Shown piece by piece: positions 12,754-54,734 of a DNA stretch of 64,000 nt (position 1 is the first letter of the stretch; each line of letters begins with the position of its first letter). The stretch comes from an uncultured Candidatus Saccharimonadales bacterium (GTDB lineage: Bacteria; Patescibacteriota; Saccharimonadia; UBA4664). Made by a program: the position numbers and the translations under genes. The stretch is from positions 2,502 through 66,501 of the forward strand of contig CAZSRA010000005.1 of assembly GCA_964609585.1 (NCBI GenBank), read 5' to 3'. Below the pieces are notes generated by a model. The model did no database searches and was not told the DNA's origin. It saw only the letters and a list, made by a program, of their open reading frames with translations.

Positions 12754-12768
12754 CTAATTAGGAGTATT

Positions 12769-23758: not shown

Positions 23759-24604
23759 TTATTGTAGAAATCCGTCGTTTTGCGTGTAAGAAAGCCCGAC
23801 TTGATCACGATAAAACTCATCGACATTTTGGAAAATATTTGTGGGGATAATCCCGGTAAAGGCTTTGATGTCGCGGATGAAGTGCGACTGATCATGAAAA
23901 TTTAGTTCGTGGGCAATGTCGACGAGACGCCGGTAGTGTCCAGTTTTCATGAGCTCATAAGCCTGGTTGATGCGTTTTATCCGAATAAAGTGCCCAGCAT
24001 CCATTCCAACAGCTTGCTTGAAGCGTTTTTGAAATTGGCGCCCAGAGAGGTCGGCGGCGATATAGAGTGACTCTACCGTGAGGGAGCTGGGGTCGTGATT
24101 AATAAGGTCTAAAGCTTGCTCAATCGCAGGATCAGGCAAACCAACTCGCCCTTTTTCCTGCCGGAGGAAGTTGATGAGCAGATTTTGTTGGGTGTCCTTG
24201 TTTGCACTTAAAAGCTGGGTTTGGAGCTCTGGGCGTGAAGCGGCAAGATTTAGAGAGGTATTGGTGAGACTTGCTGCATCGAGTCCGAAAATTGACCGTA
24301 GAGCATGAGGCTTTAGTACAACTTGTAGGGTCTCGAAGGGAAACTTAAAGTGCATGATGCTCTTTTGAATGATCTGGCCGTACACGAATAGGAGCGGCAC
24401 ATGTGTTCGATGCACAGAGTCAGTTGCAAGATGTGTGATAGCGGAATCGGGGCCAGAATGTTGAAATAGAATACCCGGAAAACCATTGGGGAAAACTCGA
24501 ATTATGAGAGCTTCAGAACCCTGGTAAGTCGCTAGCCTAAAGCATTCCACATCGGTTTTGAGGTCGTCGGGTGGCAAGGTTATCTGAGATGTGACAGCAT
24601 TCAT
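23759..24604 (-). CDS. AraC-family transcriptional regulator
   Basis: C-terminal HTH_AraC: SLYIAADLSGRQFQKRFKQAVGMDAGHFIRIKRINQAYELM...FHDQSHFIRDIKAFTGIIP. Confidence 0.75.
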   Translation of the reverse strand: MNAVTSQITLPPDDLKTDVECFRLATYQGSEALIIRVFPNGFPGILFQHSGPDSAITHLATDSVHRTHVPLLFVYGQIIQKSIMHFKFPFETLQVVLKPHALRSIFGLDAASLTNTSLNLAASRPELQTQLLSANKDTQQNLLINFLRQEKGRVGLPDPAIEQALDLINHDPSSLTVESLYIAADLSGRQFQKRFKQAVGMDAGHFIRIKRINQAYELMKTGHYRRLVDIAHELNFHDQSHFIRDIKAFTGIIPTNIFQNVDEFYRDQVGLSYTQNDGFLQ

Positions 24605-25884
24605 GACGCGCGGGCGATGAGATGCTCGATATCATCGGGGGCGCTGGGTATACTGCCCGATAACACTTCGTGGCCGGTGGATGTAATGAGAATGTCATCT
24701 TCGAGGCGGACCCCGATCCCCTCTTCGGCAAGGTAAAGGCCGGGTTCGCAAGTGACAACCATGCCGGGAGCGAAAGTGAGCTTGGAGTCGCCGGTATCAT
24801 GAACGTCGAGGCCGAGATGGTGGGAGATGTGGGGGTAATACTTGTGGAGATGTTTGGCAGCGGACGAGCCTTTGGCCTGAGCTGGGGTAATGAGCTGAAG
24901 CGCCACGAGCTCTTTTATAAGGTGTTTTCGCATGGCGGCATCAATGCTAAGGATGGTAGCACCGGGCTTATGCAGGGCAATACCGATTTGTTGCGCCCGG
25001 TAGACGGCTTCGTAGACGGCACGTTGGCGGGGCGTGAAATGACCACTGGCAGGAACAGTGCGGGAAATGTCGGCGGCGTAATAGCCGGCTTCGGCCGCGG
25101 TGTCGAAAAGCACGAGGTCATTTTTCTGTACGAGGCTGTCGCCCGGCGTTGCGTGAATGATGGTGGCATTTTTGCCGGCGGCAACGATGGAGCTGAAGGC
25201 GGGACCAGTGGCGCCGCGGCGCGTGAATTCGGCCAGGAGCTCAGCGCTGAGGTCGTATTCGGGAAGGTTCGGGCCAAGAGTAGCATAGGCTTTTTCAAGT
25301 CCGGAGCGCGTCATCTCAATAGCCTGGCGGATCTGAGCAATTTCGGCGGGAGCTTTGATGGTGCGTTGGTTTCCGAGAAAATCAAGACAGGATTTGAGCT
25401 TGTGCTCGGGAAGCTGCTGACGGAGAAAGGAAGCGCGACGAGCTGCGGGCCCGAGGGGGCCGGGCTCTGGAGCGGCGTCTGCATTTACATAAATGGTATG
25501 AAACTGCCGGGTGAGGTGTTTTAGGATATTTTTGAGCTCGTTTAGATCGAGAACGGCCTGAACGCCGGAACGCTCTGCGGCTGCTTTTTTGCTGAGACGC
25601 GGACCGGTCCAGAGCGCCATGGTATCGTCGGTTTCGCGGAGGAATAGGATTTCGCGCAAGTGTTCGTTGGGGTGACCGGGCGCCAGGAGGAGTACGGCTT
25701 CTGGCTCGTCAATGCCGGTGAGGTAGTAGAAATTGGAGTCGGGGCGGAAGGGGTATTCGAAATCGCCGCGGCGACGCAGGACATCGGCGGTATCGATGAT
25801 GGCGATGGCTTCGGGACCAATGCTTTGGGCTAGCTTTTGGCGATTGGCGGCGTGGAATTCGGGTGGGAGGGGTTGGTAGCGCAT
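24601..25884 (-). CDS. pepP: Xaa-Pro aminopeptidase (M24B)
   Basis: M24 metal-ligand motifs (HHLGLDVHD, VVTCEPGLY, EDDILIT) and an N-terminal creatinase-like domain. Confidence 0.85.
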   Translation of the reverse strand: MRYQPLPPEFHAANRQKLAQSIGPEAIAIIDTADVLRRRGDFEYPFRPDSNFYYLTGIDEPEAVLLLAPGHPNEHLREILFLRETDDTMALWTGPRLSKKAAAERSGVQAVLDLNELKNILKHLTRQFHTIYVNADAAPEPGPLGPAARRASFLRQQLPEHKLKSCLDFLGNQRTIKAPAEIAQIRQAIEMTRSGLEKAYATLGPNLPEYDLSAELLAEFTRRGATGPAFSSIVAAGKNATIIHATPGDSLVQKNDLVLFDTAAEAGYYAADISRTVPASGHFTPRQRAVYEAVYRAQQIGIALHKPGATILSIDAAMRKHLIKELVALQLITPAQAKGSSAAKHLHKYYPHISHHLGLDVHDTGDSKLTFAPGMVVTCEPGLYLAEEGIGVRLEDDILITSTGHEVLSGSIPSAPDDIEHLIARAS

Positions 25885-26199
25885 GGGGCAATTATAGCGG
25901 AAATTTTGGCCTAAAAATGCAGGGTGCCACCCCTGCGCGCCGCTAAAATGCGGGGCAGGGGTGGCGGGGATCGCGGACCCGATCTTGTACCACGCCGCCA
26001 GAGCGGCGGGGTTGGGCTAGCTGGGGTACAGGCCGATCATGAGGAAGACGCCGGCGGTGAGGAGCAGCAGGACGCAGTTGACGGCGTTCCTGAGCTTCGG
26101 GTTTTCCACGGTTTTCTCCTTATGCGACGGGGGTCCTACTAGGTAAAGCTTGGCTAGTATACGTATTTTTATTTATCTTGTCAATTATCTTGACCTTTC

Positions 26200-27729
26200 T
26201 TAGGTTTGTGGCGTTTGACCGAGATACTCTTTGACTATATTGGCTTTAGCGAGGCCGACAATAGCGGCGACCTCTTCGAGAGTGGCAAGCTTTACTCCCT
26301 GAACCGAGCCAAAACGACGAATGAGGAGTTTGCGAGTGGCGGGGCCCACGCCCGGAATGTCGTCGAGGAGACTCGAGGTTTGGCGTTTGCCGCGGAGGAT
26401 GGTTTGGTAGGTGATGGCAAAACGATGAGCTTCGTCGCGGACGCGCTGGAGGAGCTGGAGGATATGGGAGGTGTGTGGGAGGAGGATGGATTCGTAGGTG
26501 TCGCCGGCGACGGTGCGTTCGAAGGTGTAGGCATCTAATTTTTTGGCTTCGGCTTGCTTTCGCCCATCCTTTTCTGCCAACCCGGGGGCGGGCAGACTGT
26601 GGGTAGTGCGGCGGATGATTTCTTCTTCGCGTTTGGCGAGGCCGATGGCGGGGATTTTCATACCGAGCTGATCGAGCACGCCGAGGGCAGCGGCGAGTTG
26701 GGGCTGACCACCGTCGATGAGGAGCAGATCCGGCATAGGCCAGTCGGCAAGGTTTTTGGGGCTAAAGCGCCGCGTGATGACTTCGCGCATATGAGCGTAA
26801 TCGTCGTTGCCGGTGAGGTTCATTTTGAAGCGGCGATAATGGTCGCGGTTGGGCACGCCGTCGGTGAAGACGACCATGCTGGCCACGTTGTCGACGCCGC
26901 CGAGGTGGGAAATGTCGAAGGCTTCGATGCGGCGCGGCTCGCTGGGGAGGCCGAGGCGCTCGGCGAGGCCCACGAGTGCTTGGTCGCGCGTGAGGTCGAA
27001 GGCTTCTTTGTCACCAAAGATCATTTGCTTGCTGAAGGATTTGAGGTCGCTGAGCTGGTCGCGCAGGTGAGCGGCGGTTTCGAAATCTTTCTTTTTGGCG
27101 GCGCGGAGCATGTCGGTTTCGAGGTTGGTCATGAGTTTGGTTTGCTCGCCGCGTAGGTAGAGTTCGAGGCGGCGAATAGTTTTGCGGTAATCTATGGCCG
27201 TAATGGCGCCCTCTTCGGGGCCGGGGCAGAGGCCGATGTGATATTGAAGGCAGCCGCGGTTGGGCCAATTGGCGTGGGTGACATACGGGAACACTTTGCG
27301 GAGCATGCGCATGGCGCGGCGAAGGGCGTCGGCGGAGGTGAAGGGGCCGTAGTAGTGGGCCTTATCGTCCATGGGACGGCGTACGTAGCTAATGACGGGA
27401 AATTCGTCGGCGGAAATTTTGATGTAGAGCCAATTTTTGTCGTCTTTGAGGTCAATGTTGTATTTGGGCTTGTAGCGTTTGATGAACTCGGACTCGAGGA
27501 AAAGCGCTTCAACTTCGCTACCAACGGTGATCCATTCGGTGTCAGCGATGTCGGCCACAAGGAGGTTGGTTTTGGGGTCGCGGTGTTTGTTTTGGAAATA
27601 GCTCATGACTCGGTTTTTGAGCACGGAAGCTTTGCCAATGTAGATGATTTTTTTGTCGGCGTCGCGGTGAAAGTAAACGCCGGGCTCAGCGGGGAGGGTT
27701 TTGAGTTTGGCTCGGAGTTGGTCGGTCAT
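26200..27729 (-). CDS. uvrC: excinuclease ABC subunit C
   Basis: GIY-YIG N-terminus (PGVYFHRDADKKIIYIGKASVLKNRV), UvrBC-interaction region and C-terminal HhH (LLDDIPGVGPATRKLLIRRFGSVQGV). Confidence 0.9.
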   Translation of the reverse strand: MTDQLRAKLKTLPAEPGVYFHRDADKKIIYIGKASVLKNRVMSYFQNKHRDPKTNLLVADIADTEWITVGSEVEALFLESEFIKRYKPKYNIDLKDDKNWLYIKISADEFPVISYVRRPMDDKAHYYGPFTSADALRRAMRMLRKVFPYVTHANWPNRGCLQYHIGLCPGPEEGAITAIDYRKTIRRLELYLRGEQTKLMTNLETDMLRAAKKKDFETAAHLRDQLSDLKSFSKQMIFGDKEAFDLTRDQALVGLAERLGLPSEPRRIEAFDISHLGGVDNVASMVVFTDGVPNRDHYRRFKMNLTGNDDYAHMREVITRRFSPKNLADWPMPDLLLIDGGQPQLAAALGVLDQLGMKIPAIGLAKREEEIIRRTTHSLPAPGLAEKDGRKQAEAKKLDAYTFERTVAGDTYESILLPHTSHILQLLQRVRDEAHRFAITYQTILRGKRQTSSLLDDIPGVGPATRKLLIRRFGSVQGVKLATLEEVAAIVGLAKANIVKEYLGQTPQT

Positions 27730-27780
27730 GGTTTATATTATACGGTATTATTGTAAAATTGTTAAAAATATGCTATAATT

Positions 27781-28389
27781 ATGAGGACAAGCACTTCCCC
27801 TAGCCCACTGGAGCAAAGCATGCGTTTGTTGAACATCCAGGTCCTAGCCGGTGGAACCGGATCAAGCCCCGCACCGACCCACTTCAACTGGCCGATGGTC
27901 GTGCCGATGGTGGCCTTTGCCGTCGGTGTGATCATCATCACTCTGGTCGCGACCTCCCAGAGGAGCCTCTGGAGCGTCCGGATGGTCGCCCTGCTGCTGA
28001 GCGGACTCGGTGCGTTCGTCCTCGGCGGCTACAGTGTGGTACACACGGCAGGCGGACTGTACGTCAAGTCGGCTCCGGCTACCGACAGCGTGATGAACAG
28101 CTGCGGAACCTACCTTGGCCTCGAGGGCGGCGACGCGAACCCGGACGCACTACGGGACTTTCGGATCTGCGTTCACGGCTGGAACAGCGGCCACGGCCGG
28201 CCGGTCCCGGTGACGGTGAAGGTGACGACGACTCTGCAAGACTTCGCCGACCACCACCGTGAGCTTGGTCCGGCCAAGACGCTGATCGTGACCAGCCACA
28301 CGCCTCCTCAGGGCGGCGCGTCAGGGAGCGCCATGTCGGACGACCCGAACATGGCGCTCTATCCGGGCGACCTCGTCGAAGCCGGCTAA
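27781..28389 (+). CDS. hypothetical membrane protein (high-GC)
   Basis: 202 aa at about 65% GC with 2 TM helices. Confidence 0.4.
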   Translation: MRTSTSPSPLEQSMRLLNIQVLAGGTGSSPAPTHFNWPMVVPMVAFAVGVIIITLVATSQRSLWSVRMVALLLSGLGAFVLGGYSVVHTAGGLYVKSAPATDSVMNSCGTYLGLEGGDANPDALRDFRICVHGWNSGHGRPVPVTVKVTTTLQDFADHHRELGPAKTLIVTSHTPPQGGASGSAMSDDPNMALYPGDLVEAG

Positions 28390-28557
28390 TCCCGGCTTCT
28401 GTGACCTGCGGGCCCCGTCATGCTGACGGGGCCCTTCTGGCGTCTGAGTGCAGCAATGTGGAAACGCAGGCGGAGGTCAAGAGAACTTATGCTTGACTTT
28501 GCTCACTAATTATCCTAGCGTATGTTAGCCCAACGAACACACACATAGGGAGCCATA

Positions 28558-28984: not shown

Positions 28985-31822
28985 TTATTTTTGTGGCCTA
29001 GTGGCTTTTTCGAAAATACGCTTGAGGTAGCGGCCGGTGTGGCTGCCTTCAATGCCGGCGATGCGCTCGGGCGAGCCGATGCCGAGCACAGTGCCGCCAC
29101 CAGCACCACCTTCGGGGCCCATGTCGATGAGCCAGTCGGAGCTTTTGATGACGTCGAGGTTGTGTTCAATGACGAGCACGGAGTTGCCGGTGTCGACGAG
29201 AGCGTTGAGGACGGCCAGCAGGCGGTTGACGTCTTCGAAGTGGAGGCCAGTGGTGGGCTCATCGAGAATGTAGAGGGTTTTGCCGGTGGAGCGGCGAGCC
29301 AGCTCGGTGGCGAGTTTGATACGTTGAGCTTCGCCGCCGGAGAAGGTGGTGGCGGATTGGCCGAGATGGATGTAGCCGAGGCCGACTTGGTTTAAGGTAT
29401 CGAATTTGCGGCGGATGGGCGGGATGTTTTCGAAGAATGTGACTGCTTCTTCGACCGTCATGTCGAGAACTTCGGAGATGTTTTTGCCTTTGTAGTGAAT
29501 TTCGAGGGCCTCGCGGTTGTAGCGGCGACCTTTGCATTCTTCGCAGGTTACGTACACATCGGGCAGGAAATGCATCTCGATTTTGATGATGCCGTCACCC
29601 CGGCAGAGTTCGCAGCGGCCACCTTTGACATTGAAGGAGAAGCGGCCGGCTTTGTAGCCGCGGATTTTGGCTTCGGGGGTTTGAGCAAAGAGCTCGCGGA
29701 TGTCGCCGAAGACGCCGGTGTAGGTGGCAGGGTTTGAGCGCGGCGTGCGACCGATAGGGCTTTGGTCGACGGAGATGACTTTGTCGAGATTTTTGAGGCC
29801 TACGATTTCGTCGTGTTTGCCCGGTAGATCGCCGGCGCGGTGATAGACTTGGGCTAATTTTTTGGCGAGGATGTCGTTGACGAGACTTGATTTGCCCGAG
29901 CCGGACACGCCGGTGACGGATACGAGCATGCCGAGAGGGATTTCCACATCGACGCCTTTGAGATTGTGCTCGCGGGCGTTTTTGACAGTGATGGATTTGT
30001 GGTTGCCGGGGCGACGTTTTTTCGGTATTTTGATGGATTTTGCGCCGGAGAGGTACTGGCCGGTGAGGCTTTCGGGTACGGCTTCGACCTGAGCTGGAGT
30101 GCCGGCCGCCACAATGTGCCCACCGTGCTCGCCGGCGAGGGGGCCGACGTCGATGACGTAGTCGGCCATGCGAATGGTATCTTCATCGTGCTCCACGACG
30201 ATGACGGTGTTGCCGAGGTCGCGCAGGCGCACGAGGGTGGCGATGAGGCGGTCGTTATCGCGCTGGTGAAGGCCGATGCTGGGCTCGTCGAGAATATAGA
30301 GCACGCCCATGAGACTGGAGCCGATTTGGGTTGCCAGGCGAATGCGTTGAGCTTCACCTCCGGCGAGGGTGTTGGCACTGCGGTCGAGGGTGAGGTAATT
30401 GAGACCAACATCGCGCAAGAAGCTCAGTCGTGCACTGATTTCTTTGAGGATTTGGGTGGCGATTTGAGCCTCGCGGGCCCCTAGCTCGAGGTTTTCGAAC
30501 ATGCTAGCAGCCTCGCCGATGGAGAGGGTGGTGAGGTCCACAATGGATTTACCGCCAACGGTGACGGCCAGAATTTCGGGTTTGAGTCGTTTGCCGTGAC
30601 ACACGGGGCATTCACGCTCAGTCATGTATTTTTCGATGTCTTTGCGCACAAATTCGGAATCGGTTTCGTGGTAACGGCGCTCCATGTTGGGTATGACACC
30701 TTCGAAATTGGTGTGATAGGTGCGGCCGGCTGGTCCGCGCATGGAGATTTCGGTGTCGCCGGAGCCGTAGAGGATGATGCGTAGGTCGGCGGGCTTCATT
30801 TCGATTACGGGGGTGTCGAGCGAGAAGCCGTAGGTTTTGGCCACGCCTTCGAGGAGTTTGGTGTACCAATTCATGCGCGTAGTGGTTTTGGCCCAAGGGC
30901 GAATGGCTCCTTCAGCCAGGGTGAGGCGGCGATTGGGAATGACGGCTTCGGGGTCCACTTCGAGGCGGGTACCGAGGCCGGTACAGTGCGGGCAGGCACC
31001 GTGGGGTGAGTTGAACGAGAAGTTGCGGGGGGCGATGTCGGGGAGGTTGACCTCGCGGTGGACGGGGCAGGCGTAATGCTCGGAGAAGACCTGCTCTTTG
31101 GCGTCGTCGGGGGTGAGCATTTTAATGATGCCGTCGCTCAGTGCAAGCCCTTGTTCGAGGCTTTCGGTGAGGCGCTGGCGGATGTCGGGGCTGACGGCCA
31201 GACGATCGACCACGGCTTCGAGGGTGTGCTTTTTTTGCTTGTCGAGGTCGGGGAAATCGTCGATGTCGATGATGGTACCGTCGACGCGCAAGCGGGTGTA
31301 GCCAGCTTTGCGGAGTTCAACAGCCACATTGCGGTGCTCGCCTTTTTTGTCGTCGATGACGGGGGCGAGCAGCATGATGCGGGTGTTTTCGGGGAGTTCC
31401 ATAATTTGGTCCACGATTTGGCCCGAGGTTTGGCGCAAGACTTCGCGCCCGCAAATGGGGCAATGTGGGATACCAACGCGAGCGTAGAGCAAGCGCAAAT
31501 AGTCGTAGATTTCGGTGACGGTGCCAACGGTGGAGCGAGGGTTGCGGGAACTGGATTTTTGATCGATGGAAATGGCCGGCGAGAGGCCGTCGATTTGGTC
31601 GACGTCGGGCTTTTCCATGAGGCCAAGGAATTGGCGGGCGTAGGCGGAAAGCGATTCCACATAACGACGCTGCCCTTCGGCGTAGATGGTGTCGAAGGCG
31701 AGGGATGATTTGCCGGAGCCAGATAGCCCGGTAATAACTACGAGTTGGTCGCGCGGAATTTCGACGTCGACGTTTTTGAGGTTGTGCTCGCGGGCGCCGC
31801 GAACCACGATTTTGTCGGTCAT
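28985..31822 (-). CDS. uvrA: excinuclease ABC subunit A
   Basis: Starts [45 protein letters not shown]. It has two ABC ATPase modules and zinc-finger CxxC pairs. The true start is ATG 31822; the ORF-track entry runs 215 codons further upstream through an open high-GC frame. Confidence 0.9.
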
Positions 31823-32022
31823 ACCACCTTTCGCCGGCTTCGAAAACAACACACTGGGCCGGTCATTACGGAGTGGAATTGTACAGGAATTTGGGGGATT
31901 TGGCAAACCATTAGGGGCGTGCATTTTAAAATCGAAAAGCCCCGCGCCCGCCAGCTGGATTGCTGGAGGCACGGGGCGTCCCGTTGATACTTGGAGGTAC
32001 GGCTCGGCTGGCTCGGGGCCGT

Positions 32023-32883
32023 TCAGCCCATGGGCTTGAACTCGCTGAGCGCCTTCAGCTGGCGGACGGCCGAGTTGATTCGCTCGGCCCACAGCCGCGG
32101 CTGGTCGGCGAAGGAGTTGTGGTAGGCGCCGGGCACATACCGTTGCTTCAGGAAGTTCTTGCCGTAGATCCGACACAGGAGCCGCTCGGCGACCCGGCTG
32201 CGCAGGAACCGGTCGTTCCCGTACTCGCAGAAGAGCAGGATGGTCGTGGTGGTGCGCTGGCGAGCGGAGAGGCCGGAGCGGCGGCCGAAGTTGAGCAAGC
32301 AGAGGATCTGAGCTCGCCGGGTCTTGGGATCGACGTCCCCCATGAACTCGACGTGGCGGGCGGAGATCTGCTTGGCCTCTTCTTCCACCACGGGAGCCGG
32401 ACCGGTGACTAGCTTCCACTTCCAGAACGACCGGGGAAGCAAGAAGGTGGCCGGCACTCCGAGGCACAGGACGCCGTGCGGGATGAGCTTGAGGCTCCGA
32501 GCCTTCACCATCGGGTCGATGTAGACGTTGCCGATGAGCTCGACCGACTGGTAGTGCTCGGGATCGTCAGCCAGGCAGTCTTCGACCGCGGTGATTACCC
32601 CGGCGCCCATGGAGGCGCCGATGACGATGAGCCGCCGGTAGTCGTTGGCCTTGGCGTAGTCGAGGATTGCCCTCGCTTCGGCCTCCAAACTGTGGCCACC
32701 GGTGCCGTGGTTGACGGCGACCCAGTCACCACACGGGTCGAGTCCAACCCCCTCGAGTGCTTCGCGCACGATCTCGCCAGAGTTGGCGATCCCGACGGCG
32801 ACCGCGACGAGAAGGTTGGTTTCACCCGTGGGCCGAGGCCCCGTGATGAACGGAGCGATTTCCATGAGAGCCAAAGCCCTCAC
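32023..32883 (-). CDS. alpha/beta-hydrolase-fold protein (high-GC)
   Basis: Nucleophile elbow [10 protein letters not shown] (GxSxG) at about 66% GC. The start may be an internal ATG. Confidence 0.55.
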
Positions 32884-32919
32884 CTCCTAGGGTAGAATCA
32901 ACGTACTTGGGACTTGTAT

Positions 32920-32948
32920 ATTATATCATGAAAACTATAAAAATGCAA
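32920..32948 (-). promoter_or_regulatory. sigma70-like promoter TTGCAT-N17-TATAAT
   Basis: The minus-strand reading is TTGCAT ttttatagttttcatga TATAAT. It lies in an AT-rich linker just upstream of the high-GC ORF 32023-32883. Confidence 0.5.
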
Positions 32949-33056
32949 AATATTACCCCAAAGAAAAGGCCCGGCGGCGTGCCGGGCGGACGCGAAGTTT
33001 TTGGGAGTTGGTAGGTAGCCTTCGAAACCTTTTGTGATGTTACCGTGACCCGTGGC

Positions 33057-33809
33057 CTACCAGAGATGCAAGGGCCACCTGACGTCGGCGTCGAGCCAGT
33101 GCAAACTGAGGTACCAGGAGCTCGAAACGGGGAGTCCCGTCCGGACCTGGTCCACCACGAGGAGTCCTCCGTAGACGGCGAGCATACAGGCCATCAGGAC
33201 GACGATGCGCGTGGGCACGGTCGGAGGGATGTTTGCCTCGGAGGCGCGCCCGACGGCCGTCAGGTTCGTCACCTTCGGGCGCAACCAGTTGTCCATGAGG
33301 GGGACGACGACGTTGAGGACCGTGCCGCCAATCGCCGGGATGATCCCGAGGTTGTGGGCCAGCGACGTGGGCGAGGAGTGCAGGCGCACGTCCAAGTCCG
33401 GCGAGTTGCCGTTGGTGGGCCCGCCGCTCAGGTGGAACCCGATACCGGCGATGAGACCGATGGTGTAGCAGCCGACGTTCCACTTCCAGCCGACGTAGCG
33501 CGTGTCGTTGAACACGCCGCCGATGCGCTCCCAGCCCCAGGCTGCGAAGCTCAGGAGAAGCGGCAGCACGATGGCGTCGCCTAGGACGGCCGCGTAGCTG
33601 ATGTTTCGCCAGCCGAAGCTGTTTGGCTGCATGTGCTGGCAAGCCATCCAGACGTAGGCGATTGCCATGGGGCTGACCACGATGATCCACAGCGGTGCCC
33701 CGACCCTCCGACCGGCCTTTACAGCCGGCATCAGGTTTGCGTACCCGCCCAGACCGAAAAGCACGGCCATGATGGCGAACAAGCGGTCGTCGATTTGCAT
33801 GTAACTCAC
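33057..33809 (-). CDS. hypothetical integral membrane protein (high-GC)
   Basis: 250-aa ORF with about 6 TM helices. Confidence 0.45.
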   Translation of the reverse strand: MSYMQIDDRLFAIMAVLFGLGGYANLMPAVKAGRRVGAPLWIIVVSPMAIAYVWMACQHMQPNSFGWRNISYAAVLGDAIVLPLLLSFAAWGWERIGGVFNDTRYVGWKWNVGCYTIGLIAGIGFHLSGGPTNGNSPDLDVRLHSSPTSLAHNLGIIPAIGGTVLNVVVPLMDNWLRPKVTNLTAVGRASEANIPPTVPTRIVVLMACMLAVYGGLLVVDQVRTGLPVSSSWYLSLHWLDADVRWPLHLW

Positions 33810-33852
33810 CTTTCGTGAGTCGTCTACCCGAGGAACTTCCTCAAGCTTTTAT

Positions 33853-33881
33853 ATTATAACATTTATCTTTCAAATTCGCAA
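33853..33881 (-). promoter_or_regulatory. sigma70-like promoter TTGCGA-N17-TATAAT
   Basis: The minus-strand reading is TTGCGA atttgaaagataaatgt TATAAT, in an AT-rich linker upstream of 33057-33809. Confidence 0.45.
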
Positions 33882-34073
33882 CTTAATCCATGTGACTGAT
33901 ACCTACTTATTTGGTTGAGACTTATGCAATTCACCCCTAACCACAAGTGCCGCCACCTCGTCATGCAGCATAAACTCAGTTCCAGCAAGCTGGGTGAAGG
34001 CGGCGTACGGGGTTAAACTTTCGCCTTCGATCTGCGCTTTTTTCACTCTGGCTTGAACTTCTCTAGAGTCGGA

Positions 34074-34538
34074 TCAATTGTGTAATGGAGCTGGTAGCGG
34101 CGATACCGGATATGGAACATTAACCCGGTAGGTGAAGCATTGATAGCCTTTGGTGTGGGTAGCGGTATTGGGTGAGGCGCCGATTACGATGTTGGGACGG
34201 GCGGTAGCTTGACCGTCGGTTAAGAAGGTGGCACAAAGCTGATATTGGCCAAACAAGGACGGCTTATAATCATAATTTGCGAGTCTTTTTTTAACGCCGC
34301 TGGTGAGGCCGGATAGCTCGGAGAGGCTAGCGGGTAGGGTTGCTGCGCCCGATAAGCCATTTCTGGCTTCGACATCAACAGCCTGGCTGATAGCCGTAAA
34401 ATCTGATTCGATCGTGGCGTCGTGGGCGGGTCCTTGGCGGAGGGCGAAGTTCGTTGCGATAGCGCCAGCACAAAACACGCCAAGCACTAGTACTGTGATT
34501 TGGTAGCGTTGAAGGGGTTTAAGCGTCTTGGTGCTCAT
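34074..34538 (-). CDS. hypothetical exported/anchored protein
   Basis: 154 aa with an N-terminal TM/signal anchor. Confidence 0.45.
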   Translation of the reverse strand: MSTKTLKPLQRYQITVLVLGVFCAGAIATNFALRQGPAHDATIESDFTAISQAVDVEARNGLSGAATLPASLSELSGLTSGVKKRLANYDYKPSLFGQYQLCATFLTDGQATARPNIVIGASPNTATHTKGYQCFTYRVNVPYPVSPLPAPLHN

Positions 34539-35217
34539 CGCGCCAATAGTAGAGAAATATACCGCCGGCTATGGCGAGCGTGATGGCTAGATGGACAAAA
34601 TTGCCGAGGATGCTGCTGGACGCAGGGCTACCGAAAGCGTTATAGGAGGGTGCCGTACTGGTTGGGCTCGATATGAGGCTGTAAACGAAATTAATGACAT
34701 TGCCGAGGCCGACTATAAACGTAACGATGAGTGTGAGCTGGATGCTTTTTTTGCGCGAAGGATCGCGACGAAGACGGTCATCGCTAAGCTCGGCTTTTTT
34801 GAGACGAAGGAAAAGGTAGGCCAGAATGGGAAAGCTCACGATTAGGGCAGATGAGGCGATGGATGTAGGGCCTGTAGAGTCAAGAAGTGAGCCATCGGAA
34901 CCAAAGAGCGTGTTGACACTGGAGTGCAAAATGGAGCCCAGCGAAGTAGCCGCTACGGCAAGCGCAATGAACATGATGATGTACTCCAGACCCCGGGTAG
35001 AGAAGTTTTGGACGACAGCGTGCGGCAATACTTGGGGATCGTGATTCTGTGCGGACGGAGGCGGCGGGACGGGTAGATCGTCGTCCTGACCTTTGAGGCC
35101 TGCAGCGACCATTTTTCTGTCCCAGCCAGCGGCCAAGAGATCGGCTTTAATTTGGTTGTCTGAATGGCCTTTTTCTCGAGCGGCGGCGATGTACTCAACG
35201 AGAGACTGATGCGGCAC
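34519..35217 (-). CDS. hypothetical membrane protein
   Basis: 232 aa with a soluble N-terminus and then 4 TM helices. It overlaps the start of the downstream gene by 20 nt. Confidence 0.5.
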   Translation of the reverse strand: MPHQSLVEYIAAAREKGHSDNQIKADLLAAGWDRKMVAAGLKGQDDDLPVPPPPSAQNHDPQVLPHAVVQNFSTRGLEYIIMFIALAVAATSLGSILHSSVNTLFGSDGSLLDSTGPTSIASSALIVSFPILAYLFLRLKKAELSDDRLRRDPSRKKSIQLTLIVTFIVGLGNVINFVYSLISSPTSTAPSYNAFGSPASSSILGNFVHLAITLAIAGGIFLYYWRDEHQDA

Positions 35218-35276
35218 GAAGGGTTCTCCGTAAATGCTTTTGGTTTATTGTGGGCCCAGGCGATGCGCGTGTCAAA

Positions 35277-35468
35277 TTAGCGGGCGCGGTAGAGATCGGC
35301 TTCGGCGTCTGCCTGAGCTTGTTCGGCTTGCTGCTGCTCAGTGCGCAAATTATCGGCGGCAGTTCTGGTATCGGCAGCTCGGGTATCGAGGTCGTCGGCC
35401 TGTGAGCGAAGGTCGCCGGCTTGGCGTTCGAGATCGTCAGCAGTTCGTTCCATGTCGTTTGGGTCCAT
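35277..35468 (-). CDS. small acidic coiled-coil protein (63 aa)
   Basis: Repetitive D/A/R/Q-rich helix with a GGAGGG motif upstream. The call is weak. Confidence 0.3.
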   Translation of the reverse strand: MDPNDMERTADDLERQAGDLRSQADDLDTRAADTRTAADNLRTEQQQAEQAQADAEADLYRAR

Positions 35469-35600
35469 AGGATGCCCTCCGTTTTTGATATATGGGTATA
35501 TTACCGAGAGGGGGGCAGCTTAGCTTCGTCGGTGGTGAGCAAAAAGGTGTTGGTAACGAGCGGTTTTTTGGAATTTCTCCTAAAAAACAGCGCTAGAGAC

Positions 35601-35637
35601 GCGAAAACCGCCGGGTCCCTTGGACGGACCCGACGGC
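35601..35637 (-). terminator. rho-independent terminator (hairpin plus U-run) after 35650-36111
   Basis: The minus-strand reading is GCCGTCGGGTCC GTCCAA GGGACCCGGCGG TTTTCG, 10 nt after the stop. It is homologous to the hairpin at 36319-36349. Confidence 0.55.
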
Positions 35638-35649
35638 ATCGAACCGTAT

Positions 35650-36111
35650 CTACTGTTCATCCCTCCTGAGAATGGCGAGCCCGGCGTAGACTCCGATGAT
35701 AGAGCCGAGGTATGCCGCGGCCGTGACCACGAACCTGGTCTGGTCCTGCGAAGACAGCTTGTGGAACTCGGCGCCCACAAGCAAGCCTTCGGCCCACTGC
35801 CAGACGATGGCTAGGCCGATTGCCAACGCAACGACGAAGCCGTTGAGGCGGGACAGGCTACTGTCATCGATCTTGGCCGCAATGAAACGGCAGGGCAGAG
35901 CAGTGGCGCAACCCAGTAGGGCCGGGGCCGCCAGCCACACCGGCGGGAGGTCGCCTTTGAACCAGTTGGCGAACCAATTGGCAATTCCGGCGGCCACGAG
36001 GATCGCGAAGATCAGGCTGATGTTCCAGAAGCGCAGGGGCAGGAATCGGTCGATGCGAGCAACCAAGCTATCGGACGAGCGCCGGACGGGGGTGGCGATG
36101 GTGGCAGACAT
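35650..36111 (-). CDS. hypothetical membrane protein (153 aa)
   Basis: 4 TM helices. It is flanked by its own promoter/leader and terminator cassette. Confidence 0.5.
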   Translation of the reverse strand: MSATIATPVRRSSDSLVARIDRFLPLRFWNISLIFAILVAAGIANWFANWFKGDLPPVWLAAPALLGCATALPCRFIAAKIDDSSLSRLNGFVVALAIGLAIVWQWAEGLLVGAEFHKLSSQDQTRFVVTAAAYLGSIIGVYAGLAILRRDEQ

Positions 36112-36193
36112 GGGGAGCTCCAGAGCACGAGGAGGTATGAGTGATATGTGAATGGTTCGGCATCCCGCAAATATTGAGCGTGATGGTTTATGT

Positions 36194-36222
36194 ATTATAT
36201 AATACTTATGCTAAAAATGCAA
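36194..36222 (-). promoter_or_regulatory. sigma70-like promoter TTGCAT-N17-TATAAT
   Basis: The minus-strand reading is TTGCAT ttttagcataagtatta TATAAT. It is followed by an about 85-nt leader containing GATGCCGAACCA. Confidence 0.5.
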
Positions 36223-36300
36223 ATTTAATGTCCAAATGAGAGTTAGGGCAGCAAAATCTGGAATACAAAAAAACAGCCTAAGCTGTTCTGGCGATTCATT

Positions 36301-36349
36301 AGAATTTAAAAGCGGCTTACCGCCGGGCCCCTTGGACGGGCCCGGCGGT
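36301..36349 (-). terminator. hairpin terminator after 36364-36771
   Basis: 11-bp stem CCGCCGGGCCC/GGGCCCGGCGG followed by a short U-run. It is about 85% identical to the 35601-35637 element. Confidence 0.5.
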
Positions 36350-36363
36350 CTCGAACCGATGCT

Positions 36364-36771
36364 TCACTCGTCACTGGTGACGATCTTGTAGGAGAGGAGG
36401 TAGTTGAGGCCGGCGGCGATCAGGAAGATCACGACGGCCCAGGTCAGAGTGGGGTGCGATGACATGTAGTCCCCGAAGCTCTTGTTCGTGTATTCGATGT
36501 TGGCTTTCTTTCTGCCGGCTGGCACCGCCAACGCGAGGGCGACACCAACGACCAGCGTGAAGACGAAGCCGAGCATGTAGGAAACCTGGTATCCGCCGAC
36601 GGTCTCGTGGAAGAGCGCGAACCCGCCGAGTCCGCCGACGGCCCCGAGGAACGCGGCCATGGCGATAGGGGGAATGGCGTGCCCGCCGATGCTTGCGGCC
36701 AGCATGGCTGCGACGACGATGCGGGCGATCACCAGGATCAGTTGCACCTTGGCTACCTTGCTCAATCCCAT
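36364..36771 (-). CDS. hypothetical membrane protein (135 aa)
   Basis: 4 TM helices. Its coding sequence is unrelated to 35650-36111 despite homologous flanks. Confidence 0.5.
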   Translation of the reverse strand: MGLSKVAKVQLILVIARIVVAAMLAASIGGHAIPPIAMAAFLGAVGGLGGFALFHETVGGYQVSYMLGFVFTLVVGVALALAVPAGRKKANIEYTNKSFGDYMSSHPTLTWAVVIFLIAAGLNYLLSYKIVTSDE

Positions 36772-36842
36772 GGGGTCCTCCCGGACAAAGTGATGAATTG
36801 TGGTGGTTCGGCATCGGCCTCGTGTGAGTACGATGTTTTACT

Positions 36843-36871
36843 ATTATATAATGTATTTATAATAAATGCAA
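36843..36871 (-). promoter_or_regulatory. sigma70-like promoter TTGCAT-N17-TATAAT
   Basis: The minus-strand reading is TTGCAT ttattataaatacatta TATAAT, followed by a leader homologous to that of 35650-36111. Confidence 0.5.
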
Positions 36872-36902
36872 ATAAATATTGTCTTCGATCTCGAACTGGG
36901 CT

Positions 36903-36931
36903 TTGGCTTTTTAGAGCTTCGGTCCTATAAT
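36903..36931 (+). promoter_or_regulatory. sigma70-like promoter TTGGCT-N17-TATAAT
   Basis: Sits 30 nt upstream of ATG 36961, with GGAGAG 6 nt before the ATG. Confidence 0.45.
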
Positions 36932-36960
36932 CCTAAACATAATGGGAATGGAGAGTTAGA

Positions 36961-37784
36961 ATGCCAGAACATGGACCCGGAGGTGATCAAGAGCCAGCGA
37001 TGCATGGACGACCAGTCGATGTGTCGGGTGAGCTTAGCGACTTGGCAAAAGCGAAGATCGTAGATAGGACGAATTTATTCACAGCAGTGGCTGGGGCGGC
37101 CGCTCGCGAGTTAGATCGGCACAACGACCAGACTCATGCCGAACAAGGCTCTAGGGTCGATTCCGCGCGAGCCGATCTCGAAGCAGTACATGCTGGAAAG
37201 AGTCGCAGAGATGGTGCGACACCCGAAATGCCCGAAAGCCCCTTCGTCACCGATAAGGACGGGGTCATCTTAGATGTGCCGTCGCTCAGGGCGGTCGGCA
37301 AACAAGATCTTGCAAAACCCACTGAAGAGCCCGGCTTTACAGGAGTTCGAAACGGGCTTACCTACGAAAATGGCGTTATCACTGACATAGGGGTGAACCT
37401 CCCGCCGGTGCCACAGCCCGAACAGCCCGTTTTACCTAGAATTGAAGGGGTTGAATATGACGAGAAGGGTCTTATTACAGGCTTCAAAAAAAGCCCCGAA
37501 CGAGGAGACAGTACACAACCGACTCCACCTTCAATGCCTAAATCGGAGGGAGCAGGCGTACCGACTGAAACGGCTGATATGCCAGCTGCTGTGACCCATG
37601 GACCAATGGTTGGCGTTGAAGGAGCTCTTTCTGGTGTGACACGTCCTGCAGAAGATCAGCCGCAGCAAGCTTCGACCGTTGTCGAAACAACAAGTGCCCC
37701 AGAAGGCGCTCCAGCCAAAAAGCGACTGCGCGATAGACTACCGGGTCGAGCTAAACGGATTCTTGGTTTGGACGGTAAGCATGT

Positions 37785-37788
<4 letters not shown>
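36961..37788 (+). CDS. hypothetical protein (275 aa, P/E/G-rich, high-GC)
   Basis: ORF with RBS and promoter. No recognisable domains. Confidence 0.5.
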
Positions 37789-39785
<1,997 letters not shown>

Positions 39786-42417: not shown

Positions 42418-43947
42418 TTGTATTTTATTGACGAATTACGTGCTTTACCCTATAGTCCCGGACACGACGTGAACCTCGACAACCTAGGAGCAATCATGGT
42501 TTTTAAGTGCCGACGGCCCGGAGAGATTCTCGGAAATGTTCTCCAGGACGCTCAGGGAAATGTCACCGGCGGGCGTGTGTTCGGGTGGGAAGCAGAACAG
42601 GGTATTTCTTGCCTAGAGATGCTTGACGGCAAGCTCGAAGTGGCCGATAACCACACGATGTGGAGCATGCTCTGCCATGTATACCCCCCAAGCCACCCCT
42701 TCAATCGTTCGGGTAATCGCCACTACATCGATGTGGGGAGCCACCCCGAGCGCTGTACGGCTGAGCACAATACAGTCCGAGGGATCGTTCGCGATTTCTT
42801 CTTCGGCGAGGGCGAGATGGACCGCCGAGCGCGCGCCGCTACGAGATACTTCAAAGAGGCGAAGCAACGCGATGTCTATCTGAAAGTCTGGGGTGGCAAC
42901 ACTACCGGCGGAGAGACATATGCAGGTCATGCCAACTACCAAATCTGGCTGCCGATCGACACAGCCATCTCAGATGATCGCATGAGTATCGAAGACTTCA
43001 TGTATCCGCTGGCGCCCTTCTTGGCAACCTGTTCTATCGTTCTGGGCGCAGGTGACCTGGTATGGGATGGAGACGGACTCCACATGAACGTGTCCGTTCG
43101 AGCGAGCCGCATCTGGGACGCGTTCTCCTGCTCCACCACCCGAAGCCGATCGCTCGTCAATCTGCGCGACGAGCCGCACGCCGGGGATGGTTCGAGCCGC
43201 CTGCATGTCATCAGCTTCGATGCACCCATCCGACCTCGAACCAAGGCTCGGATACACTCCCTGATGGTCGTACTGCTTACTATGCGCGAGCAGGGCAAGC
43301 TCAAGGGCCTCAGACTATCGGGCGAGGAGCTCGTACAGGTGACTCAAACCGTCACCCGCAACCCGGAGTACAAGTTCTCGCTTGAGTGCGGCAATAAAAG
43401 CGCATTTGATATCCAGAGGACCTATGCCCAGGAAGCCCTGGAGTTCGTCACTGGTCGGGTCGGTCTCGAGCAGTTCGCACCCTGGGTCGAGGACTATATG
43501 CGGTGCCTCGATCTGATCGCCGAGCATGGCTACAACGCCGAGGCACTCAGCGACGAGCTGGACTGGGCCCTTACGTGGGAATCGGTCCAGGAGCTGGTGA
43601 GGGCTGGCCACACCAGCAGAACCAAGCTTTTCGGCCGCCAACTAGAGCTACACCTACATACGGGCAGAGACACCCGACGGATGCGAGCGGCGGCGGCCGA
43701 CCCCTGGTTCGAAAGGTTTGGTCTGCACGAGCTACCCGAAATCCTTGAGCCCCCCAGAACTCGCGCTTGGGCGCGTGGGGCAGTCATCGCGGCCGCCCAG
43801 GAACTCCGCCTGGACTTCAACGCGGATTGGGAGATTGTGGTCGTGAATGGGGAGTCCATTCATCTACCAAAACCCGGCAGCCCGAAACTCCCGTTCCAGG
43901 CTCAGAACTTGGTCCGCCAAGCGGGCCTCGAACACTTACTAGTCTGA
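42418..43947 (+). CDS. Pup-ligase/deamidase family (PafA/Dop-like) glutamine-synthetase-fold amidoligase
   Basis: RVFGWEAEQGIS matches (R)IMGIETE(F/Y)G(V/I)S. YIDVGSHPERCTAE matches PafA YLDVGSHPEYATAE. VWGGNTTGGETYAGHANY matches PafA KNNTDGKGASYGCHENY. GC is about 65%. The true start is probably ATG 42496 (MVFKCRR...). Confidence 0.75.
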   Translation: MYFIDELRALPYSPGHDVNLDNLGAIMVFKCRRPGEILGNVLQDAQGNVTGGRVFGWEAEQGISCLEMLDGKLEVADNHTMWSMLCHVYPPSHPFNRSGNRHYIDVGSHPERCTAEHNTVRGIVRDFFFGEGEMDRRARAATRYFKEAKQRDVYLKVWGGNTTGGETYAGHANYQIWLPIDTAISDDRMSIEDFMYPLAPFLATCSIVLGAGDLVWDGDGLHMNVSVRASRIWDAFSCSTTRSRSLVNLRDEPHAGDGSSRLHVISFDAPIRPRTKARIHSLMVVLLTMREQGKLKGLRLSGEELVQVTQTVTRNPEYKFSLECGNKSAFDIQRTYAQEALEFVTGRVGLEQFAPWVEDYMRCLDLIAEHGYNAEALSDELDWALTWESVQELVRAGHTSRTKLFGRQLELHLHTGRDTRRMRAAAADPWFERFGLHELPEILEPPRTRAWARGAVIAAAQELRLDFNADWEIVVVNGESIHLPKPGSPKLPFQAQNLVRQAGLEHLLV

Positions 43948-43999: not shown

Positions 44000-44128
44000 G
44001 GGGTTTCGATTGCACAATAGTTGCCGATATTTCATAAATGTTATATAAATTACGAACTTGTGTCGCCAACCGGGCGGCCAAGACAGAGGGATGGACCTTC
44101 AAAACCCAACTTTAAGGAGATCATCGAG

Positions 44129-44737
44129 ATGAACCCCCTTTTGGTGGCCATCATGCTGCTTGCCGGCGTGGCCATCGCTATCTTCCTCACGCGACGGCGC
44201 AACCGGAAGATCCGGACCGATCGCGCCGCAGCCAAACGGCGATCCGACCCGTTCGCCGACGAGCGCGCCGCCGGCGGCGACCCGATGAAGATCGGGCCCG
44301 GCACTCAGATCAGGAACGGCATCGAGGAGTACTTCGTCCGCGGTACTGTCACGTGCACCAGCGGTGGCTCCACTTGGTGGGAGCACTACTTGAACACTGA
44401 CGAGGACTCCCCCTACGACTACATCTCGGTCGAGAAGGTGCGCGGGGGCGTGGAGACCTGCGCCTGGAAGACGATCCGAGGTAGCGGCCTGGACCACACC
44501 CAGGATTACCTCACGTACGGCAACCGGAATTACGAGTTCTCCGAACAGAGTGACAACGCACGATACACGACGACCGGCACCACCGACCTCCCACAGGAAA
44601 GCGGCAGCCTCAAGTACGTCGACTTCGCAACCCCGGACGGCCAGTGGAAGCTCTCCTTCGAGTGCTACGACGGGGCCGACTGGGAAGTCAGCGTCGGCGA
44701 GGTCGTGACGGGGCTGGAGATCAACCTCGCAGGCTGA
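44129..44737 (+). CDS. DUF4178-like protein with N-terminal TM helix
   Basis: Start is MNPLLVAIML with AGGAGA 7 nt upstream. Its repeated beta-rich segments (WWEHY; YVDF...GQWKLSFECYDGADWEVSVGEVV) resemble DUF4178, but this is from memory and no HMM was run. A TTGCCG-N17-TATAAA promoter lies upstream. Confidence 0.5.
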   Translation: MNPLLVAIMLLAGVAIAIFLTRRRNRKIRTDRAAAKRRSDPFADERAAGGDPMKIGPGTQIRNGIEEYFVRGTVTCTSGGSTWWEHYLNTDEDSPYDYISVEKVRGGVETCAWKTIRGSGLDHTQDYLTYGNRNYEFSEQSDNARYTTTGTTDLPQESGSLKYVDFATPDGQWKLSFECYDGADWEVSVGEVVTGLEINLAG

Positions 44738-44884
44738 CGGCAACACACGCTAGACCCTGTTCCAGGTCCATCCCTCACGCAGAGGGGCCCCGGGAGCACA
44801 TGCATCCCGGGGCCCTGTGCCCGCACAATTTTACTTTCCTGCAATTATAGGTTATAAATATACGATTACCGGACGCGTGCCATC

Positions 44885-45454
44885 GTGCTCGAGCACGGTC
44901 GCACCTACTATTTGAAGGGAGAGATCCCAACGGTTGAATATCAGGACCAATCTCCGGATGGCCTGAAGCTCGCGATCGTCACCGGAGCGCTCCGCGTTGA
45001 CCAATTCAGTATCCTGCAGGAAGAATCGCTGCGCGCAGCGGATCTGACTGCGAGGTGCCGGATCGTCGGCGCGAGTCATGTCATCGAGTACACGCTCAAC
45101 GGCCTGCCCATGTGGGAGGTTTTTGCGTGTCAGGATGTCGAAGAGGATGCCCTGCGCTATTCGCTGGATCATGTAACGGCCCACGTCGTGGAGACCGAAC
45201 ACCCCGGTGGAGCGCGGCACATCTTCCAAGCCTCGCTGACTTCTACGGAAGCAGCCGAGGAGGACTTGAGGCGACTTCGGCTTCGGCCGCTGCGTCTTGA
45301 GTTCGCGTTCCCGTCTGCGGACGGAACTCAGGCCCCCGTCACCATCATCAGTGGCGAACCCCAATCTGGAGGCATTCTGGTCGAAACGGCTCATTCCTAT
45401 CCCAACTATGGGCAGGTTGTCCTGACCCGCTCAGTTCTTCAGCTTAGGAGCTGA
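44885..45454 (+). CDS. hypothetical protein (high-GC)
   Basis: GTG start. The GC3-rich frame ends with AGGAG positioned for the next gene, implying the same operon as 45460-47073. The antisense ORF 44852-45394 is judged an artefact. Confidence 0.4.
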   Translation: MLEHGRTYYLKGEIPTVEYQDQSPDGLKLAIVTGALRVDQFSILQEESLRAADLTARCRIVGASHVIEYTLNGLPMWEVFACQDVEEDALRYSLDHVTAHVVETEHPGGARHIFQASLTSTEAAEEDLRRLRLRPLRLEFAFPSADGTQAPVTIISGEPQSGGILVETAHSYPNYGQVVLTRSVLQLRS

Positions 45455-45459
45455 TACCT

Positions 45460-48044: not shown

Positions 48045-48137
48045 CAGGCGACCCTTCTTCGTTCACCCCGTGCCCGTCCCTTCGCCACCTGGCGGCGGGA
48101 CGGGCACCCGACACCGGGACACGCAGGCTAAACCTGC

Positions 48138-53663: not shown

Positions 53664-53694
53664 CCTTTTGTTGGGCTTACATGATGCATGGTTT

Positions 53695-54669: not shown

Positions 54670-54734
54670 TACATCTGATGATAGCAGTTATGGTTTGGGA
54701 ATGGTACTACCCCGTGCTTTGACGTATTTTTATT

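Follow-up and report, generated by a model that had tools for sequence, protein, structure and literature searches.

Predicted promoters of the TTGnnn-N17-TATAAT type and the GC3-rich single-gene units behind them in a Saccharibacteria chromosome segment

What does it mean that a promoter-like motif recurs, always with the same spacing, ahead of GC-rich genes lodged between core genes? The question is raised by a 64,000-nucleotide stretch of contig CAZSRA010000005.1 (assembly GCA_964609585.1), the window in what follows, which belongs to the chromosome of a Saccharibacterium (Candidate Phyla Radiation, CPR; Patescibacteria). The 6-kb gap from uvrA (28985-31819) to uvrB contains eight small genes, and inside it lie four minus-strand sites, designated P1 to P4. 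A first-pass annotation had proposed that such sites allow acquired genes of high GC content to be expressed as cassettes of one gene, one promoter and one terminator. The observation behind this proposal is real and statistically solid; the promoters look ordinary, and the units that they head have an architecture like that of phage morons, defined as possessing their own promoter and terminator and a deviant GC content (PMC3594210). The reading favoured here, with a probability of about 0.7, is that these are ordinary housekeeping-sigma promoters, each at the head of a monocistronic unit that is insulated and probably strongly expressed, in a Saccharibacteria genome. Base for base, 31674-38228 recurs in a Logan assembly made independently from run SRR9179560.

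Promoter sites and their excess over chance

All four minus-strand sites were recovered with the exact spacer of 17 nucleotides (nt) that had been ascribed to them, and all carry an exact TATAAT as the -10 hexamer. P1, TTGCAT-N17-(TGA)TATAAT at 32920-32948, serves an alpha/beta-hydrolase unit; P2, TTGCGA-N17-(TGT)TATAAT at 33853-33881, serves the membrane-protein gene 33057-33800; P3 (36194-36222) and P4 (36843-36871), both TTGCAT-N17-TATAAT, serve the genes 35650-36111 and 36364-36771, respectively. The description of the hexamers as near-consensus holds for the -10 and for the TTG of the -35, which is retained in all four, but not for the rest, TTGCAT agreeing with the canonical TTGACA at 3/6 positions. 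The AT-rich linkers were found as described: they measure 73-83 nt at about 30% GC, with coding regions of 62-65% GC on either side. The start codons, 40-80 nt downstream of the sites, are provided with sequences resembling the Shine-Dalgarno (SD) element, namely AAGGTGA before the ATG at 33800 and GGAG/GGGAGG before the ATGs at 36111 and 36771; for the hydrolase gene, GGAGGTGA stands about 15 nt before the ATG at 32865 and 6 nt before an alternative TTG at 32874.

On the plus strand, TTGGCT-N17-TATAAT is present at 36903-36931, where a promoter had been noted; it is divergent from P4, but the gene that it serves (36961-37788) is not of high GC content (GC 0.55; GC content at third codon positions, GC3, 0.45). 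The motif TTGCCG-N17-TATAAA was likewise located, at 44021-44049, where it precedes the DUF4178 gene 44129-44737 (GC3 0.80; hairpin at 44784-44815). A further promoter, reported at 62186-62214, does exist, but is in fact TAGACA-N17-(TGC)TATAAT at 62187-62215, and the ATG abutting its -10 is not the gene start, which is the GTG at 62258; the gene served, 62258-63130, has a GC3 of 0.91 and a hairpin at 63148-63180. To these can be added TTGTAA-N17-(TGC)TATAAT at 27751-27779, also on the plus strand, which serves the high-GC3 membrane gene 27820-28389 and its hairpin at 28410-28434.

AT-rich DNA readily yields strings resembling TATAAT, and chance matches in AT-rich spacers were considered as an explanation of the recurrence. 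Exact TTGCAT-N17-TATAAT was observed 3 times against 0.14 expected from dinucleotide shuffles of the window and 0.003 expected under a Markov null drawn from 51 AT-rich segments, where none of 5000 resamples reached 3. For TTGNNN-N17-TATAAT in the same 51 segments, 5 occurrences were observed and 0.10 expected. The first-pass annotation had itself conceded that an equal frequency in random AT-rich sequence would speak against it; with an AT-rich null so far below the observed count, that objection fails. Every site, moreover, is properly oriented and spaced relative to the genes, and the probability left to chance is negligible.

The sites are not spread evenly. Near-consensus sites (at least 10/12) number 0 in 1-20 kb, 1 in 19.5-27.5 kb, 11 in 27-46 kb and 2 in 46-64 kb, and 6 of the 13 that are plausible stand ahead of GC3-rich genes. 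Promoters of this grade were found at 6/13 high-GC3 genes vs 7/52 others (Fisher p=0.016), and the exact TTG-N17-TATAAT form at 5/11 high-GC3 vs 1/30 transcription units (p=0.003), a modest enrichment in tests with small numbers in which gene and unit calls were made by the analyst. It may also be recorded that P3 has a palindromic -10 region (TATTATATAATA) and for this reason scores as a plus-strand promoter as well: TTGAGC-N18-TATAAT at 36174-36203 overlaps P3 and would direct antisense transcription into 36364-36771 from the 3' end of that gene, which is probably incidental.

A layout shared with core genes

The promoters had been called native-style, and the description is apt, inasmuch as the layout TTGnnn-N17-(TGn)TAtAAT is common to core genes of the window. 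Ahead of uvrC stands TTAACA-N17-TATAAT (27737-27765, minus strand), ahead of uvrA TTGCCA-N17-TACAAT (31878-31906, minus strand), ahead of the DUF5671 operon TTGACA-N17-CACAAT (35247-35275), and a comparable promoter precedes tkt, the gene for the C-terminal half of transketolase (57103-57130); the same architecture was also seen ahead of a Pup-ligase gene. The uvrC promoter is apparently leaderless. Genes of this kind, in which the ATG follows the -10 by 6-7 nt, include uvrC (27729-27742, minus strand, TATAATATAAACCATG) and the tkt C-half (57096-57108, minus strand, TATCATTAAACCATG), and uvrC of a related metagenome contig, L082, appears to be leaderless too (19472-19487, TATAATTACCGTATG).

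This contig comes from a close relative. UvrB of the window (37785-39785, minus strand) is 84% identical to that of L082 and 67-74% identical to those of Candidatus Saccharibacteria metagenome-assembled genomes (GTDB genomes); the window also encodes a DUF5671 protein, whose domain is common in CPR genomes. In L082, where UvrA is 86% identical, the region upstream of uvrA retains GTTGCCAAA and TGTACAAT and few of the 17 spacer bases match, a pattern of the kind that a functional promoter should leave, and homology between window and L082 restarts exactly at the upstream edge of this promoter. A similar result was obtained for P2: the upstream regions of five homologues of 33057-33800, from five Saccharibacteria loci and encoding proteins that are 16-39% identical, align on the TTG of the -35 and on ATGnTATAAT. 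Conserved hexamers around a free spacer are thus seen at P2, across five genomes, and at the uvrA comparator.

The elements would accordingly be of the sigma-70/sigma-A type, with a -35 of the form TTGnnn, a 17-bp spacer and an often TGn-extended -10 TATAAT. Promoters of Firmicutes and of many bacteria share with them the TTG, the spacer, the TATAAT, a frequent TGn at -15/-14, an upstream flank rich in AT and a distance of 40-80 nt to the SD element and start codon; the difference is the -35, here TTGCAT and not TTGACA. No paper was found on experimental promoter recognition in Saccharibacteria.

Unit shells, leaders and terminators

The units at P3 and P4 resemble each other well beyond the motif. 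Their promoters and leaders share 70.6% identity over 85 nt (E about 1e-6), and their terminators, from just past the stop codon through the hairpin, 87.5% over 40 nt (E about 8e-9). The hairpins lie at 35608-35636 and 36320-36348 on the minus strand, the latter being followed by small hairpins at 36311-36324 and 36270-36289, and one pair of the stem has been altered on both sides, C-G to T-A, in a compensatory manner. Each predicted transcript begins with a stem, CAUC...GAUG at 36161-36185 for P3 and CAUCG...CGAUG at 36812-36835 for P4, which runs into a GATGCCGAACCA box (36153-36164 and 36804-36815) that is identical in the two leaders. The stems share CAUC(G)...(C)GAUG and differ in their inner part, and the context ahead of the ATG, (G)GAG..CCCCATG, is common to both units. 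Between these flanks the likeness ends. The coding DNA of 35650-36111 (153 amino acids, GC3 0.81) is no more similar to that of 36364-36771 (135 amino acids, GC3 0.85) than codon-shuffled sequence (z=0.04), and the two proteins, both singletons with four transmembrane helices (4-TM), agree in helix spacing and are weakly similar over part of their length (z=2.8, p about 0.02). No copies of the GATGCCGAACCA box and terminator core were found in the window beyond the two tandem units, nor was the terminator pattern matched exactly in the metagenome collection.

Judged by their flanks, the units at 36194 and 36843 are tandem copies of one expression shell, and the four sites therefore cannot be counted as independent. 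That P1 and P2 might be further copies was considered and rejected, there being no similarity outside the motif, where they are no closer to P3 and P4 than are other promoters of the window. The recurrence of the CAT in the -35 would thus rest on about two independent events.

This last point bears on the possibility that TTTGCATTT is an operator lying over the -35, or is itself the -35 recognised by an alternative sigma factor, and defines a small membrane/hydrolase regulon. The longer pattern TTTGCATTT-N15-TATAATA fits P1, P3 and P4 alike, so that the non-consensus CAT and the flanking T's are shared by three sites; it occurs nowhere else in the 64 kb, and among 165 other loci that were fetched, exact TTGCAT-N17-TATAAT is rare. 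Of the three sites, however, two are mutual copies. In the window the heptamer TTTGCAT shows no enrichment (10 observed vs 8.8 expected), the -10 is a perfect hexamer for the primary sigma factor, and the motif has neither a palindrome nor a second half-site. A regulon of this kind is considered quite improbable.

Hairpins at the 3' end, which had been reported after many of the high-GC genes, were in fact seen after nearly every GC3-rich one; they are very stable and GC-rich (-30 to -40 kcal/mol within 80 nt), and the arrangement of one gene, one promoter and one hairpin is supported. Behind the membrane-protein gene 33057-33800 (minus strand, 247 amino acids, GC3 0.89) there is a hairpin like an intrinsic terminator, followed by CTTTTCTTTG (32969-32987, minus strand); behind the hydrolase gene 32023-32865 (minus strand, Abhydrolase_6 fold, GC 0.65, GC3 0.86, a singleton whose start is possibly the TTG at 32874), a GC-rich hairpin followed by TTTTCGATTTT adjoins the uvrA promoter (31939-31977, minus strand). 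The T-run is more variable. It lies 6 nt past the stem after 62258-63130 (ACTCCGTTTT), is partial after the stem of 35650 (TTTTCGCG) and is not adjacent to the stem of 36364, where two further hairpins with T-runs stand downstream; stems after 27820-28389, 44129-44737, 47070-48044 and 57288-57884 have none.

Stem-loops at the 5' end of messenger RNAs are known as stabilisers, for example in the leaders of E. coli ompA and B. subtilis aprE. The predicted P2 transcript has a 5'-proximal stem-loop at 33826-33846 (minus strand); its leader contains two hairpins and folds better as a whole than its shuffles (z=-3.4), and four leaders of P2 homologues each have a palindrome near the predicted 5' end, as read by eye in the sequence. 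Like the known stabilisers, these stem-loops lie a few nt from the (predicted) 5' end, and one relative (L162) encodes RNase J. They differ in being predicted only, and in that the leaders of P3 and P4 are no more stable than shuffled sequence. No leader or terminator family was detected with Rfam, at the gathering threshold over the whole window and at E<=1 over 31.5-38 kb; tRNAs and noise were the only matches.

Taken in order, each unit would consist of an AT-rich promoter, a leader of 40-80 nt starting with a stem-loop, an SD element, a short open reading frame (ORF) and a GC-rich hairpin. Transcription would begin at the sites described and would be strong; the leader stem-loop would likely guard against decay that depends on the 5' end, thus acting as a stabiliser; the ORF would usually encode a membrane protein, and the very stable hairpin would end transcription. 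The units occupy gaps between core genes (uvrB/uvrA and uvrA/uvrC) and encode lineage-restricted, very fast-evolving proteins, with a codon usage that sets them apart from other genes of the genome. The repetition of an exact TTGCAT would be largely a matter of local history, P3 and P4 being tandem copies, P1 having the motif only and P2 being a variant with a layout of long standing in the phylum.

Several points weigh against this interpretation. All transcription starts are predicted from sequence. TTGCAT matches only half of the -35 consensus, and the shared CAT and flanking T's could mark a site for a binding factor. P1, P3 and P4 serve singletons, and their promoters are for this reason not footprintable; the P3 and P4 leaders, with z values of +0.8 and -0.7, fold no better than their shuffles. 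The interpretation also leaves unaccounted for both the enrichment of near-consensus sites at GC3-rich genes and the lasting GC3 richness of these genes in several genomes.

Homologous shells around unrelated coding DNA could also reflect another arrangement, in which promoter, leader and terminator act as homology arms of an expression socket and unrelated ORFs are swapped or tandemly added by recombination. Besides the shells of P3 and P4, homologous up to the start and stop codons, a comparable, independent case was found in another Saccharibacterium, L086 (1059-3370), where two tandem units stand after the gene gap. Two copies, 100% identical, exist of a 445-nt block that comprises the last 111 nt of gap, the promoter TTGACA-N17-(TGA)TAGTAT and a leader of about 245 nt. 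The ORFs behind the two copies have GC3 values of 0.84 and 0.76, vs 0.57 for core genes, and their DNA is alike at random level (z=0.09); the terminators are related. A relative, L006 (2424-3410), has only the first of these units (64% protein identity), and in the window, where gap directly adjoins rpiB, there is none. The L086 leader contains a hairpin with a T-run and has no Rfam match; it may encode a small RNA or an attenuator.

The comparison with L082 covered two slots, that of the uvrC-divergent promoter and that upstream of uvrA. The gene order there is uvrB, a radC-like gene (labelled from its translated sequence), two genes, a gene of the 33057-33800 membrane family on the opposite strand, uvrA, two small GC3-rich membrane ORFs on the opposite strand, and uvrC. 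The two small ORFs are driven from the uvrC-divergent region by TTGATA-N17-(TGA)TATAAA. In the window the same slots hold different GC3-rich ORFs with a similar promoter layout, for example 27820-28389 in the uvrC-divergent region, in spite of core proteins that are 84-86% identical. Except for the membrane family, the proteins of the window's GC3-rich units (islet proteins) have no detectable counterpart in L082. Eight GTDB relatives (L001-L008) were too distant for synteny and had no islet genes in common with the window.

Each of these findings has a second side. The weak similarity and common helix spacing of the two window proteins may mean that they are old paralogues whose flanks have been kept by selection, and the compensatory terminator change implies elapsed time. 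The L086 proteins are weakly similar as well (z=3.5, p about 0.01), and their tandem comes from a metagenome assembly, so that it could be a real addition of a unit via the shell or an artefact of strain variants; whichever its origin, it shows different ORFs within the same shell in one population. The membrane gene adjoining uvrA in L082 is a diverged homologue and not a replacement, which means that rapid divergence in place can mimic swapping. Either genes turn over in the gaps between core genes, or they diverge there too quickly for orthology to persist, and the membrane family, at about 16% pairwise identity beside 86% for UvrA, demonstrates that the second route is taken. Exchange within sockets is possible but appears unlikely as the explanation. 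Its extension, that such sockets in naturally transformable Saccharibacteria form an integrase-free analogue of the integron, equipped with promoters and serving small membrane or surface proteins, and that the GC3 excess of the cargo is possibly a by-product of GC-biased gene conversion, is offered as a tentative and somewhat doubtful proposal.

Composition and origin of the GC3-rich genes

Thirteen genes of the window have GC3 values of 0.75-0.91 and share one deviant codon usage. In comparison with core genes, G at the third position is raised (0.33 vs 0.17), as are the fractions of AAG (0.86 vs 0.29), GAG (0.75 vs 0.35) and CAG (0.83 vs 0.38). Resident genes have a third-position GC skew of about -0.5 on the minus strand and of 0 to +0.4 on the plus strand, as exemplified by 52410-61303 (minus) and 12376-13440 (plus), and most genes of the window lie on the strand with the C-rich coding sequence; GC3-rich genes have a skew of about -0.2 on both strands. 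By codon choice and by the lack of a strand-specific skew, they look compositionally foreign. Translational selection was considered as the cause of the high GC3 and was rejected because the core sugar-metabolism genes gap, tkt, fba and rpe, assumed to be likely well expressed, follow the core codon pattern and use AAA, GAA and CAA instead.

The first-pass annotation had spoken of acquired genes; spelt out, this reading would make them recent acquisitions from high-GC donors, for example actinobacterial hosts of Saccharibacteria, fitted with native promoters. The common codon usage, the missing strand-specific skew and the absence of 35650-36111 and 36364-36771 from L082 are all consistent with this, as are the many hairpins without a U-tract, terminators of a kind typical of Actinobacteria. 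A donor, in contrast, was not found. In three word-indexed searches of 5.8 billion proteins, the islet queries matched nothing but themselves, no donor homologue of the GC3-rich genes was recovered, and a cluster look-up returned the islet proteins as singletons. For a speE-like gene, tblastn against plasmids gave relatives of 34-37% identity at best, which are proteobacterial and uninformative as to a donor.

The only family that could be traced leads elsewhere. An exhaustive HMMER search with the 247-residue protein of 33057-33800 returned 42 distant clusters only, at no more than 39% identity, and the members with fetchable DNA sit in small-genome, Saccharibacteria-like contexts (SmpB, RNase J, UDG, FtsK); one adjoins uvrA in L082 (family HMM E=7e-19). 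The GC3 of the family gene exceeds that of its neighbours in L082 (0.87 vs about 0.62) and elsewhere (0.70 vs about 0.52; 0.72 vs 0.58), and is 0.75-0.80 on short contigs; a raised GC3 and the gene's own promoter layout were found in all five Saccharibacteria genomes. The family would therefore be restricted to Saccharibacteria, and the shared layout and GC3 indicate that gene and promoter have long travelled together within the phylum, which argues against a recent capture by a native promoter. For the family (P0004-P0044, about 230 amino acids), an invariant His, near-invariant Ser, Asp, His and Trp, and the motif LHDSxTSWAHNLG can be recorded. The AlphaFold (AF2) model of the protein is confident, with eight helices and a predicted local distance difference test (pLDDT) score of 90; it has no Foldseek match in the PDB, and the protein belongs to no Pfam family. 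The designation of the islet genes as acquired thus stands as far as their composition is deviant and acquisition plausible, and falters on the missing donor and on the deep conservation of the pair formed by 33057-33800 and its promoter. Recent acquisition is regarded as unlikely.

Still less probable, to a degree that makes it hardly tenable, is an origin as remnants of a phage or of another mobile element, that is, as true morons or integron cassettes. The unit architecture equals the moron definition (PMC3594210), and the likeness to the morons of HK97 and HK022 extends to the lone gene between a promoter and a terminator of its own, to the deviant composition (here GC3 0.81-0.89 vs about 0.55-0.70) and to presence in one genome with absence at the equivalent place in a relative. 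The units described here, however, stand between uvrA, uvrB and uvrC and not in a prophage, with core genes on both sides and without phage homology, and one of them is old and conserved within the phylum. By blastn, the DNA matched no phages or plasmids; no member of the membrane family was present in IMG/VR; and no recombinase was found among the ORFs scanned with Pfam, a few small ORFs being outside that scan. Searches against PHROGs and, for defence systems, PADLOC gave only weak matches, one to a PHROG whose function is unknown and one to PbeC of PADLOC (E about 2e-3), and both concern a single protein, a 63-residue acidic coiled coil (MDPNDMERTADDLERQAGDLRSQADDLD...) whose ORF, at 35277-35468 on the minus strand, separates the DUF5671 operon from the cassette units.

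With integron cassette arrays the units have in common the tandem, equally oriented single-ORF units, a structured element after each ORF and unrelated ORFs between similar boundaries. They differ in that each has its own promoter, that only two share boundaries and that no integrase was found in the Pfam-scanned ORFs. No attC-type sites or repeats were recognised by reading: the 3' elements are perfect GC-rich stems, and the nearby GGTTCGA is unlike the GTTRRRY core. Closer in some respects are the replacement-type flexible genomic islands, or hypervariable islets, that lie between conserved genes in marine and other bacteria. There, too, one slot holds different, compositionally deviant genes, often for membrane or surface proteins, in related genomes; here, by difference, each slot holds one gene with a strong consensus promoter and a hairpin.

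Three features outside the uvr gaps were noted. A gene of the Pup-ligase family (PafA/Dop-like; 42418-43947, plus strand) with core-like codon usage is present in this Saccharibacterium; pupylation is mainly an actinobacterial trait. The GC3-rich block 44129-49919 on the plus strand comprises four genes, for a DUF4178 protein, a 537-residue protein without a Pfam match, a membrane protein with a double DUF350 and a long SpeE-like aminopropyltransferase, with strong hairpins between some of them. On the minus strand, a near-consensus TTGACA-N17-TATACT at 26156-26184 is separated by about 270 nt from the downstream gene for aminopeptidase P (24601-25884), and a terminator-like hairpin with a T-run (25919-25936) stands directly ahead of its ATG; the element 25885-26184, which has no Rfam match even at E<=1, is possibly an attenuator, or else a riboswitch of unknown type.

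Taken simply as an observation on promoters, this is an ordinary finding. Its value lies partly in the phylogenetically footprinted layout TTGnnn-N17-(TGn)TATAAT, including apparently leaderless forms, for the little-studied promoter recognition of Patescibacteria/CPR, a layout which could help the annotation of newly tractable Saccharibacteria and the design of expression constructs for them. The more interesting by-product is the insulated single-gene unit carrying a fast-evolving, GC3-rich ORFan, mostly for a membrane protein, in a gap between core genes. If such units are exchanged within conserved shells, they would represent a simple mechanism for the diversification of surface or accessory genes in reduced epibiont genomes.

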